This document shows, piece by piece, positions 1,741-4,485 of a stretch of DNA of 4,485 nt. The stretch is from the IMG/VR virus record IMGVR_UViG_2563366972_000007; one strand, 5' to 3'. This DNA is from a virus (lineage: Duplodnaviria; Heunggongvirae; Uroviricota; Caudoviricetes). The number at the start of each line of letters is the position of its first letter. Within the stretch, counting starts at the first letter, position 1. Made by a program: the position numbers and the translations under genes. Under the pieces are notes generated by a model. The model had not been told where the DNA came from. It worked only from the letters and a program-made list of their open reading frames with translations, and searched no databases.

Positions 1741-3546
1741 ATGTCTGTATTAATTTCTGGTGTGCTGACTGATGGCGCAGGACTCCCCATGTCCGGATAC
1801 CATATTATTCTGAAAGCCCGGCAGAATACATCTGCAGTGGTCATGAGAACGGTGGCTACAGTGGTGACAGGGCCGACGGGAGAATATGCTTTTGAAGCAC
1901 AGACCGGAAGATATGATGTTTATCTTCGGTCGTGTATTGAAAGAGAATATTGTGTCGGTGATATTTCGGTTTACGACGACTCCAGGTCCGGCACGCTGAA
2001 CGACTTTCTGACTGCCCTTGATGAAGGCGATTTAAAGCCGGATGTAGTGAAACGCTTTGAGGAAATGGTGGCGCAGGCGCAGCAGAGCGCGAAAGCGGCA
2101 GCGGAAAGCGAACGACAGGCCTGGCAACATGTCGCTGATGCGCAACAAATTAAGAGCGACTGCGAGACGCTGGCGGATAACGTACAGCAGAACGCAGAAG
2201 CCGTTGCTGAAGATAAAAAGCACGTGGCACAGCTGTCTTCGCAGGTTGAGGATACCGCCGAAGAGGTCAGGCAGGATGCTGAAGCTGCCAGAAAGGCCGC
2301 ATCCGATGCGGAGCAGGCCAGGGATGAGATTGATACCGCATTATCAGCGACACTCAAAACGGCTAACCACCTGTCAGAAATTGCGGCAGAAGGCGAAGAG
2401 GCGCAACAGGAATCCCGCGATAATCTGGGACTGAAAAGCGCCGCTACAATGGAGCCACAGAGTGATATTTATGACCGGACAGAAGGCCGACTGGCGGTTC
2501 CCGGCATGTTCGGATTCGGGAAAATATTTTCCTATGACGACAGGACAGAGTTTGAAACAGAGGCTGATTTTCTACTGTGGGTAAAAAGGGCAAACCCCGG
2601 ACGCTATGCCGTTTATGCACGTACAAATGTGGTAATACAGGGCGTGCTGCTCAGTGGTACTGTTGACATTATCTGGCCAGAATATCAGCACAATCCCAGT
2701 CCGGTATATATACCTAAAATCATTATTTTCTATGGCATTAACGGCCATGTTTATTACAACCGTTACTGGACTGCCAGTGGTGGTTATCTGGTTGGCTGGG
2801 AGAACCTGAAGGTCAACGAGGCTTCACTCAGGGCACTGATTGAAACCCGCGCGCCACTAAACAGCCCGGCACTGACCGGAACGCCGACAGCGCCAACACC
2901 GCCAGATGATGCAGCAGGCACAGAAATAGCTAATGCGGCGTTTGTCCGCAAACTGCTCGCTGCACTGGTGGATTCATCTCCCGAAGCCCTTGACACGCTG
3001 AACGAACTGGCGGCGGCGCTGGGCAATGACCCGAACTTTGCGACAACCGTCACTAACGCGCTGGCGGGTAAACAACCACTCAGTGATGTGTTAACGGCAC
3101 TCAGCAACCTGACACAACGTGCTGACACGCTTCCGTACTTTAACACAGATGAATACGTCTCCCTTGCGCCCCTGTCAGAAAAGGGACGCTCACTGCTGGC
3201 GCAGGAAACGCCGGAAGCCATGCGAACAGTACTGGAGCTGAAAAGCGCCGCCACAATGGAGCCACAGAGTGATATTTATGACCGGACAGAAGGCCGACTG
3301 GCGATACCGGGGACACTTGGTTTTGGGGAAATTTTTCATATTAATGACAGGATTAGCTTTGACACCAGAGCCGAATTTGATACTTGGATAAGAGGCGCAA
3401 AACCGGGGCGTTATCTGGTTTATGCAAACCCCGGCATAGTGATACCAAAAGTGCTATTCAGTGGAATTCTTGAAATTATCTGGGCTTCAGCTTTAACTAC
3501 TACAACTAACGGCGTAAACAAGATTTATTTTTTTTTACAGTGTTAA
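1741..3546 (+). CDS. stf: Side tail fibre protein, lambda Stf-like N-terminal domain, Ala/Glu/Gln-rich coiled-coil shaft, conserved fibre motif, two receptor-binding-type modules; as encoded it stops prematurely at TAA 3544..3546 inside the second module
   Basis: Seen: 601-codon ORF, AGGA at 1730..1733 sits 7 nt before ATG 1741. From memory: the N-terminus (MSVLISGVLTDGAGLPMSGYHIILKARQNTSAVV..ISVYDDSRSGTLNDFLTAL) aligns with lambda Stf (MAVKISGVLKDGTGKPVQNCTIQLKARRNSTTVV..ITVYEDSQPGTLNDFLCAM). The central block APLNSPALTGTPTAP..EALDTLNELAAALGNDPNFATTVTNALAGKQP matches the conserved Stf/fibre motif APLDSPALTGTPTAP..DALNTLNELAAALGNDPDFATTMTNALAGKQP. Confidence 0.85.
   Translation: MSVLISGVLTDGAGLPMSGYHIILKARQNTSAVVMRTVATVVTGPTGEYAFEAQTGRYDVYLRSCIEREYCVGDISVYDDSRSGTLNDFLTALDEGDLKPDVVKRFEEMVAQAQQSAKAAAESERQAWQHVADAQQIKSDCETLADNVQQNAEAVAEDKKHVAQLSSQVEDTAEEVRQDAEAARKAASDAEQARDEIDTALSATLKTANHLSEIAAEGEEAQQESRDNLGLKSAATMEPQSDIYDRTEGRLAVPGMFGFGKIFSYDDRTEFETEADFLLWVKRANPGRYAVYARTNVVIQGVLLSGTVDIIWPEYQHNPSPVYIPKIIIFYGINGHVYYNRYWTASGGYLVGWENLKVNEASLRALIETRAPLNSPALTGTPTAPTPPDDAAGTEIANAAFVRKLLAALVDSSPEALDTLNELAAALGNDPNFATTVTNALAGKQPLSDVLTALSNLTQRADTLPYFNTDEYVSLAPLSEKGRSLLAQETPEAMRTVLELKSAATMEPQSDIYDRTEGRLAIPGTLGFGEIFHINDRISFDTRAEFDTWIRGAKPGRYLVYANPGIVIPKVLFSGILEIIWASALTTTTNGVNKIYFFLQC
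2431..2496 (+). repeat. Direct repeat copy 1 (66 nt) opening the first receptor-binding-type module; encodes LKSAATMEPQSDIYDRTEGRLA
   Basis: Seen: identical to 3238..3303 at 65 of 66 positions (t at 2445 versus c at 3252); sequence diverges sharply from position 67. Confidence 0.9.
3238..3303 (+). repeat. Direct repeat copy 2 (66 nt) opening the second receptor-binding-type module
   Basis: Seen: 65/66 identity to 2431..2496, same reading frame, 807 nt (269 codons) downstream. Confidence 0.9.
3528..3536 (+). other. T9 homopolymer at the frame-change point of the fibre gene (candidate slippage or phase-variation tract, or indel/sequencing error)
   Basis: Seen: nine consecutive T at 3528..3536. 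It lies inside the 29-nt interval (3518..3546) where frames +1 and +2 are both open. Reading the tract as T8 gives ..NKIYFFYSVNGAVYY.., which matches module 1 (KIIIFYGINGHVYY). Confidence 0.8.
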
Positions 3547-3631
3547 TGGTGCGGTTTATTACGCCCGTGGCACTTCTGGTGCCCCGGCATGGGAACTCTG
3601 GAGACGAACAGATAAGGAATTAATTGATTTT

Positions 3632-3922
3632 TTGTCCGGTACAGTTTATTCCGGCGGGCTGAATGCATCACCGGAGGCTGGCGGTATTGTTCAGGCAGCA
3701 TTTCGTTATCAGGATAAGCCCGGAGGATACACCCTGAGGCGAGGTGATGCTTTAAGTGGTTCACTTCTGAAGCCATATATAATTACAGTCGATGAAAGTG
3801 GCGAACAGACTCTTCATATTAAAGAGGAACATACGTTTCCCGGATATTACTGGAGTCTGACCTCCTATCCGTGGCTGAAAACGAGTGATTATATTCTGGG
3901 AATATTTATAAGGTATCGTTAA
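3632..3922 (+). CDS. Distal (C-terminal) part of the tail fibre, displaced into frame +2; not an independent gene
   Basis: Seen: frame +2 is open from 3518 to TAA 3920..3922 with no in-frame ATG (the ORF-track start at 3632 is TTG). Its translation from 3518 (FIFFYSVNGAVYYARGTSGAPAWELW..) is homologous to the continuation of the first fibre module in frame +1 (IIIFYGINGHVYYNRYWTASGGYLVGWENL..), so it is the natural continuation of the fibre past the T9 tract. Confidence 0.7.
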   Translation: MSGTVYSGGLNASPEAGGIVQAAFRYQDKPGGYTLRRGDALSGSLLKPYIITVDESGEQTLHIKEEHTFPGYYWSLTSYPWLKTSDYILGIFIRYR

Positions 3923-4485
3923 TGAACATTACAGATATAAAAAATCCTGTCAGCCTTGAACACGGGGCGATAAATTGCGAAATATTATTTGACGATATGG
4001 AGGAATATGTTCCCTATACCGCGACACCGACAGACAGCGATAAAACGGGGAAGCAGGTATGGCAGGAGCTACAAAGCGGTAAATGGGGTGAAATCGCCCC
4101 GTTCATCGTCACGCCGGAACTTATTTCGGCAGCGAAGAATGCCAAAAAGCGGGAAATTGAGGTGTGGCGTACAGAGCAGGAAGCGCAGCCGTTCACGTTC
4201 GAATGGAACGGTCATACCTGGAATGGTGGTCCTGACTCGATGGCGCGGCTTTATCCGGCAGTAATAGCATCAAAGTCTGACACAGCGCGAAAATCCATGA
4301 TATGGGGTAATGCGGAAAACCAGCAGGTGAAACTGTCTATGCAGAAACTGGATGAACTGCTTACTGCAATGGTTCAGGCACAGGTCGATCGCAATGATGA
4401 GATTTATCAGCGTCAGCGCGAGATGAAAGAAGCGTTAAATTCACTGGAGGATTTGAAGTCGATTAGGGATTTCAGGCTGGAGTAA
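3922..4485 (+). CDS. Putative tail fibre assembly/chaperone protein; family not recognised
   Basis: Seen: 187-codon ORF whose ATG (3922..3924) overlaps the fibre-frame stop TAA (3920..3922) in a TAATG junction, with AAGG at 3910..3913. The position directly after a fibre gene is where Tfa-type chaperones sit. I do not see the canonical Tfa C-terminal motif, so the function is inferred from context only. Confidence 0.45.
   Translation: MNITDIKNPVSLEHGAINCEILFDDMEEYVPYTATPTDSDKTGKQVWQELQSGKWGEIAPFIVTPELISAAKNAKKREIEVWRTEQEAQPFTFEWNGHTWNGGPDSMARLYPAVIASKSDTARKSMIWGNAENQQVKLSMQKLDELLTAMVQAQVDRNDEIYQRQREMKEALNSLEDLKSIRDFRLE

Follow-up and report, generated by a model that had tools for sequence, protein, structure and literature searches.

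In a prophage of Escherichia coli KTE48, the gene for a side tail fibre carries the same 66-nt block twice. Our analysis suggests that this block is a conserved connector that has been homogenised within the gene and that serves both as a substrate of homologous recombination and as a joint between fibre modules; we assign this explanation as a whole a probability of roughly 0.78. The DNA in question, referred to here as the window, is the whole analysed stretch of 4,485 nt, which corresponds to positions 1-4485 of contig KB733035.1 (GCA_000352305.1). Judging by its sequence, the fibre gene at 1741..3922 of the + strand is a lambda-Stf-type side tail fibre of an E. coli prophage. The two copies of the block are found at 2431-2496 and 3238-3303, both on the + strand, and are identical at 65 of 66 positions, the sole mismatch (T/C at 2445/3252) being synonymous (GCT/GCC). 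Their offset of 807 nt corresponds to 269 codons and keeps the frame of the open reading frame (ORF) that starts at 1741. In this respect the original prediction, made from the letters alone, of a near-identical, in-frame 66-nt direct repeat is confirmed.

Two copies of the block and their homogenisation

The longest perfect runs shared by the two copies are 14 nt (2431-2444) and 51 nt (2446-2496) in length. In 200 dinucleotide-preserving shuffles, no second match at up to 3 mismatches was obtained (expected number 0.00). Outside the block the similarity is of a different kind. Over the 60 nt located 5' of the copies, identity is 30%, which is the chance level. On the 3' side it is 58% over the first 60 nt and 57% over the next 90 nt, fading after ~250 nt, in line with the earlier claim that the sequence just after the block is only loosely similar.

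Copy 1 encodes residues 231-252 (LKSAATMEPQSDIYDRTEGRLA), a connector that opens knob module 1 (2497..2835, residues 253-365), which is an internal globular alpha/beta domain of ~115 residues. Copy 2 encodes the same peptide at residues 500-521 and opens knob module 2 (3304..3616, residues 522-625 of the repaired protein), a paralogue of module 1 with a frameshift inside it. Module 1 and copy 2 are separated by a collar/linker of 134 residues (2836..3237, residues 366-499, ...SPALTGTPTAPTPPDD...LDTLNELAAALGNDPNFATT...), a segment common to P2 H, P1 S and many fibres. According to blastp, modules 1 and 2 are 57% identical over 111 residues (E=2e-40), a value that includes the 22 identical residues of the block. 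The similarity is limited to ~125 residues of the knob domain; module 2 has an additional tip domain of ~100 residues, and the collar/linker comes after module 1. The initial view of two receptor-binding-type modules therefore needs to be narrowed: both modules do open with the same block, but they resemble each other in the knob only, and module 2 is frameshifted in KTE48.

In the monomer model produced by AlphaFold2 (AF2), the block is predicted to be unstructured (predicted local distance difference test, pLDDT, <50), while the knob is predicted to be a confident globular domain. This is consistent with a connector role of the block. An in-frame ATG inside the block was also considered as an internal translation start, but this candidate was dropped, since direct reading of the sequence revealed no preceding Shine-Dalgarno sequence.

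To place the identity of the two copies in context, we compared block pairs at the nucleotide level in non-redundant loci. In most lineages, block pairs within one gene are 55-74% identical, and the median between genes is 68%. Two lineages depart from this and are homogenised, that of the window at 97-98% and that of L004/L017 at 94-95%; in each case identity falls to 55-72% over the 60 nt that follow. Between themselves the window copies share 98% identity, compared with 85-86% to either copy of L017, whose own copies share 95% identity. In other words, paralogous copies are closer than orthologous ones, which is the pattern of concerted evolution. The L004/L017 lineage is independent of that of the window and features three tandem 804-nt units (4227-6571 in L004 and 6691-8540 in L017). 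When unit 1 is compared with unit 2, the blocks are 94-95% identical and the rest of the units 50-87%. The L004 fibre gene, which belongs to E. coli A10, is annotated as a truncated pseudogene.

The history of the block can be approached through L016, a two-module gene that is 94.5% identical to the window overall. Between the two, 22 substitutions are packed within 2435-2490, and the flanks are near-identical: 2246-2434 has 1 substitution, at 2412, and 2491-2535 has 0. Such packing indicates that a patch of ~60 nt, coextensive with the block, was replaced. Other lineages have copy-1 alleles similar to that of L016 (LTVTATMEPQDGTHDRTAGRLA), the A36-type one at 83% identity, and copy 1 of A36 is a hybrid of the two allele types. 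Judging from these alleles, copy 1 of the window lineage likely received a copy-2-type allele, either from copy 2 itself or from a single-module allele. The suggestion that the abrupt switch from near-identity to divergence marks a recombination joint or a gene-converted segment thus gains support both from the unusually high identity of the copies and from the patch observed in L016.

Shorter alleles and the block as a junction

Recombination between the copies had been predicted to delete 269 codons and to place module 2 directly after the coil. Four natural fibres of 457 residues turned out to be built in exactly this way. The protein search returned an E. coli fibre of this length (P0116; 726-269=457), and its cluster contains three more distinct 457-residue sequences, P0123, P0124 (three accessions) and P0129. 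These fibres consist of the N-terminus, the coil, one block and module 2, reading ...SRDNLG-LKSAATMEPQSD.YDRTEGRLA-.PG.LGFGEIFHINDR... in the region of interest. The DNA encoding P0116 is locus L015, a 382-kb contig whose prophage adjoins the hya operon. L015 aligns to the window minus 2431-3237, with 99-100% identity over 1616-2415 and 96% over 3238-3422. At 2445 its single block agrees with copy 1, while the base corresponding to 3275 is one otherwise found only in copy 2 of L009/L012. This combination would be compatible with a crossover inside the block, two informative sites being too few for proof. A further contig of 953 nt also reads coil-block-module 2. The N-terminus varies within both the one- and the two-module forms (P0124 with P0001; P0116 with P0130), indicating that unit content and the N-terminus have been reassorted.

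The same parts make up a whole family of fibres, which includes those of Rac-SA53, phiP27, SerU-LTIIb, E. coli A10, A36, 401651, W/LY180 and ~20 IMG/VR prophages. The number of knob modules in the family varies from 1 to 3 per gene, and every module opens with the motif LKxAAxxxxQxDxxDRTxGRLAxPGxxGFG. BLAST homology between the window and the family fibres starts or stops in or just after the block (2456-2466, 2520 and 3302-3337); for the Rac-SA53, SerU-LTIIb, A36 and W-type fibres it stops at 3302-3326. In 11 loci a module-1-type knob comes after the coil and in 6 after another module; knobs of the module-2 type are preceded by the linker in 7 loci and by the coil in 1, and those of the phiP27 type by either the coil or the linker. 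In the fibres of Rac-SA53, 401651 and W, the second module is 64-79% identical to module 1 at the amino acid level. Since module types recur behind different upstream contexts, the block is a shared junction of a combinatorial architecture. The proposal that the block is a conserved junction for module swapping had come with a suggested check, the alignment of related fibre genes; in these alignments the block does mark the homology breakpoint, and the occurrence of modules in different contexts agrees with the proposal as well. Among 5,426 complete E. coli genomes, megablast gave no match to the 72-nt block, and module 2 at >=85% identity is present in no complete genome. A scan for the exact pattern of the block identified 4 stretches in IMG/VR, all belonging to the window lineage, and none in either JGI metagenome contigs or the one-genome-per-species collection.

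Based on these observations, we propose that the block DNA encodes a 22-residue connector, which opens every knob module in modular fibres having the lambda-Stf N-terminus. The two copies would have become near-identical through short-patch replacement, the source being either the other copy (gene conversion) or a single-module allele (recombination). RecA or a phage Rad52-type recombinase might then pair them in ordinary homologous recombination, for which the 51-nt perfect run common to the copies would be a substrate. This run is longer than the minimal efficient pairing segments of both RecA (31-34 bp) and Red-beta (23-27 bp), and in the stf genes of E. coli, short patches of diverged sequence are exchanged by phage Rad52-type recombinases (PMC3945230). 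A crossover between the copies would remove knob 1 together with the collar linker, 807 nt in all, in frame, and unequal exchange could add one unit. As a joint, the block might also enable knob and tip modules to be reassorted among related prophages. What the comparisons show is the repeat, the homogenised patch, the pattern of concerted evolution, the natural alleles shorter by one unit and the homology breakpoints at the blocks; the recombination pathway, the direction of the changes and an effect of module number on fibre length or receptor use are inferred.

Several considerations weigh against this explanation. The support for recombination between the copies within one strain is comparative rather than a direct observation. 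A conversion tract of ~60 nt between sequences that are 71% identical is short for RecA. Part of the conservation of the block is purifying selection on a structural connector. All of the two-module relatives read have kept both modules. The 457-residue alleles could be ancestral and not deletion derivatives, and L015 resides at another chromosomal site. In addition, the single-module contigs all come from short-read assemblies, and because assemblers break at the repeat (L014, L020, P0135), a mis-join in these contigs is possible.

One might go a step further and speculate that the identity of the block is kept by selection, the block being a cassette joint through which an induced or resident prophage population could, at appreciable frequency, produce fibres having one, two or more knob units. 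In combination with the slippage-prone run of eight T residues (T8) in module 2, this would represent bet-hedging for fibre length and receptor range. We regard such an extension as unlikely. The homogenised block in L004/L017 and the 96-residue remnant ORFs found elsewhere (see below) are compatible with it but do not demonstrate bet-hedging. If it were true, the locus would be a bet-hedging device and not a passive by-product of recombination.

Alternative explanations for the near-identity

The simplest alternative is that the identity results solely from purifying selection on an essential connector peptide, with no special recombination history or role. The family motif is indeed kept at every module start, and a non-globular structure is predicted for the block, which would suit an inter-domain or trimer-interface element. 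However, synonymous sites are identical too, with only 1 difference per 66 nt. The L004/L017 blocks encode almost the same peptide, yet their nucleotide identity to the window copies is 85-86%, and most within-gene pairs are at 55-74%. The L016 patch of 22 substitutions between near-identical flanks points to replacement rather than slow divergence, and constraint at the nucleotide level (from an RNA element, for instance, or a binding site) is disfavoured by the median identity of 68%. Selection alone is thus quite improbable as the cause.

Very improbable, in our opinion, is the possibility that either the second copy or the alleles shorter by one unit are assembly artefacts of a short repeat, i.e. 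a collapse or a chimera. What speaks for it is that in several assemblies (L014, L020, P0135) contigs end exactly at the block, KTE48 has an extra 1,021-nt contig spanning both blocks (P0134), the window contig starts inside the prophage, and the run of nine T residues (T9) in module 2 could be an assembly or sequencing error. Nevertheless, at least six independent assemblies (L009-L012, L016, L019) contain the two-module gene without a break, with lineage-specific single-nucleotide polymorphisms and 94-99.7% identity. Assemblies having the two-module gene come from four data sources (NCBI, JGI, Logan and IMG/VR), and the presence of this layout in independent assemblies rules out an artefact of one assembly. 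As for the shorter alleles, there are four different 457-residue sequences on contigs of 2-382 kb, each with its own polymorphisms. In the protein cluster, which includes every module-1 fragment, there are 0 such fragments within the accession range of the assembly of P0116, the assignment to an assembly being made from accession numbers only. The extra KTE48 contig deserves a separate comment. P0134 (ELF95066.1) corresponds to approximately 2404-3424 of the window and includes both blocks, module 1 and the linker, whereas its module 2 is of the L010/L011-type allele (Y to H in block copy 2, E to K, T to S). The presence of this allele in KTE48 suggests either a second near-identical prophage copy or a mixed population.

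Another scenario is that the copies are relics of one unit having recently been duplicated in tandem, with later divergence sparing only the block. The units are in tandem, in frame and paralogous (57% amino acid identity over 111 residues), and the L017/L004 genes contain three 804-nt units. This scenario nonetheless has an exceedingly small chance of being correct. Just outside the block the nucleotide divergence is ~40%, for each module, other genes contain orthologues more similar to it than the partner module is, and unit 2 lacks the linker and has a different tip. Furthermore, the divergent copy 1 of L016 implies that the identity of the block arose after the two-module gene already existed.

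Finally, we consider it extremely improbable that the block is the site of a dedicated system, either an invertase/shufflon-like switch or a diversity-generating retroelement: although the Cin/Gin/Min invertases rearrange tail fibre genes in P1, Mu and p15B at the constant/variable junction and the collar linker is homologous to the constant part of P1 S, the copies are direct, no significant inverted repeat involves them, the called genes of the window and of the flanks (up to 6 kb) of relatives include neither a recombinase or reverse transcriptase gene nor, specifically, an adjacent serine recombinase, an AAACC..GGTTT-type crossover core was not seen in the block when it was read directly against consensus sites, the sole mismatch is T/C and so not adenine-specific as in a diversity-generating retroelement, and divergence is graded with breakpoints even inside the block (the L005 hybrid), as homologous exchange predicts.

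Known systems, the rest of the fibre and neighbouring genes

Mosaic fibres recombining at short conserved motifs are a classical subject, known since the early 1990s. Tetart et al. (1998) reportedly dealt with the His-box motifs of T-even gp37/gp38. Recombination linkers and conserved motifs of fibre genes are the subject of Sandmeier 1994 (Mol Microbiol 12:343), Haggard-Ljungquist 1992 (J Bacteriol 174:1462) and Sandmeier 1992 (J Bacteriol 174:3936), all as cited in PMC3945230; as far as they are presented in that paper, these cases concern exchange between phages and are partly ascribed to invertases. Like the classical linkers, the blocks described here are short conserved segments at the borders of variable segments, and homology between different fibres starts or stops at them. 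The P2 H and P1 S fibres are similar also in a more specific way, as the collar linker found here is the same segment. Unlike in the classical cases, the motif is directly repeated in one gene and homogenised to 98% DNA identity, and alleles exactly one repeat unit apart coexist among near-identical prophages.

De Paepe et al. 2014 (PMC3945230) experimentally measured relaxed recombination of lambdoid phages with defective prophages in the stf/tfa region. They found that patches of ~100 bp are often exchanged within genes and that 23-34 bp of perfect identity are sufficient. Their system and ours both concern side-tail-fibre genes of E. coli prophages and exchange across short, diverged homologies. 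The difference is that our evidence is comparative and that the substrate is an intragenic direct repeat, recombination of which alters the number of modules. There is also a clear likeness to concerted evolution, as within-gene copies are 98% and 95% identical compared to 85% between lineages and the tract is sharply bounded. In contrast to the usual form of this process, only ~60-66 nt of the 807-nt unit are homogenised, the rest being ~40% divergent. As to structural analogues, the tandem knobs of R-type pyocins and myophages (PDB 6cu2/6cl6, 5m9f) gave modest scores and had no detectable sequence similarity to the modules, and Foldseek returned nothing significant.

What is new here is the joint in the form of an intragenic direct repeat, its homogenisation in two lineages and the natural alleles that are one unit apart. 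Since the principle itself has been known since the early 1990s, the finding refines the existing picture and does not change it. Modularity of tail fibres sets the host range of phages and is used in engineering phages, pyocins and delivery particles. In this context, the locus offers a natural example, at base-pair resolution, of a 22-residue connector joining knob and tip modules, and makes this connector a candidate splice point in the design of chimeric Stf-type fibres. The homogenised 66-nt patch would also make further loss or gain of a unit likely.

The fibre gene in KTE48 is broken by the T9 run at 3528..3536, which shifts the frame inside knob module 2. As a result, the ORF as written (1741-3546, 601 residues) stops at 3546, and the remainder of module 2 is in the next frame, extending to 3922 and including a 96-residue remnant ORF (3632-3922). 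Removal of one T (T8) yields a single protein of 726 residues ending at 3922. T8 and an intact gene are found in 8/8 relatives read (L009-L012, L014-L016, L019), and the intact 726-residue orthologues of L009-L012 are 98.8-99.7% identical to the window. A scan of IMG/VR for other lengths of the T run returned one T8 copy only. The intact ORF expected of a lambda-Stf-type fibre is thus absent from KTE48 and present in its relatives. The additional T could result from slippage in the T run, from decay similar to the lambda PaPa stf frameshift or from a sequencing error. Three more 96-residue remnant ORFs (P0121, P0127, P0128), non-identical and originating from other assemblies, suggest that the gene may be broken upstream repeatedly.

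The frameshift of lambda PaPa stf, reportedly described by Hendrix and Duda in 1992, likewise involves a single base and splits the gene into two ORFs in one strain. This frameshift is also mentioned in PMC3945230. Other features shared with lambda Stf and Rac StfR include the PF08400 N-terminus and the accessory gene after the distal gene. Unlike in lambda Stf, the accessory protein is DUF4376 and not Caudo_TAP, the fibre gene comes after P2-like gpU-gpX-gpD, and the shift is located in the T8/T9 run of module 2.

The remaining parts of the fibre conform to this assignment to different degrees. The N-terminal attachment domain of lambda-Stf type (1741..2139, residues 1-133) matches PF08400 'prophage tail fibre N-terminal' with E=5.6e-53 and, among PDB sequences, the tail fibre chain 9e7m with E=2e-15. 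It is followed by an Ala/Glu/Gln-rich, coiled-coil-like shaft (2140..2430, residues 134-230), which has weak matches to coiled-coil proteins only, aligns with the equivalent segment of phiP27 L56 at 82% amino acid identity and abuts block copy 1 with its C-terminal end, ...QQESRDNLG. The NCBIfam scan produced nothing but spurious coiled-coil matches. The collar/linker is, as sequence searches indicate, an unusually widespread fibre segment. Within 2851-3237, blastn detects 89% identity to P2 gene H over 2995-3077, the match to the collar fibre of PDB 9d93 has E=3e-11, and 34 PHROG tail-fibre families are matched. The collar/linker is also ~80% identical to gene S of P1/P7, where the P1 record is annotated as 'repeated element b2', and the part at 2989-3038 has a 90% match to a minor tail protein of a Gordonia phage. 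The C-terminal domain (3617..3922, residues 626-726, in the +1 frame relative to 1741) is present after module 2 only. It is probably a receptor-binding tip and weakly resembles the C-termini of the phiP27, Rac-SA53 and SerU-LTIIb fibres.

The fibre gene is preceded in the window by the P2-type tail genes gpU (1-432), gpX (407-625) and gpD (616-1716), and followed by a gene for a 187-residue DUF4376 protein (3922..4485, + strand; Pfam PF14301 with E=1.9e-14, phrog_1141 tail with E=8e-83). The position of the latter gene is kept in L001-L017, always directly 3' of the fibres of this family, and its product is, on these grounds, probably a fibre assembly or accessory protein. The contig begins within the prophage, and the next genes after the window in the source contig are uspF, ompN and ydbK, which makes the window the end of the prophage. 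The fibre and DUF4376 genes are always the terminal gene pair of the prophage (window; loci L009, L015, L016, L001, L002). This pair adjoins uspF-ompN-ydbK in the window, L009 and L016, uspF in Rac-SA53 and the hya operon in the single-module allele L015. It is preceded by gpU-gpX-gpD in the window, L009 and L015, and by baseplate-J, a fibre and Caudo_TAP genes in L016, phiP27 and Rac-SA53. Such differing neighbours indicate that the same terminal cassette is present on different prophage backbones and at different sites. Short mosaic patches, as compared with relatives otherwise 99-100% identical, are also seen elsewhere in the window: at 1216-1615 in gpD, where identity to L015 is 81-92%; at 2199-2304 in the coiled coil, where substitutions relative to L009, L012 and L016 are clustered; and at 4224-4423 in the C-terminal part of the DUF4376 gene, which is 84-86% identical to L015.

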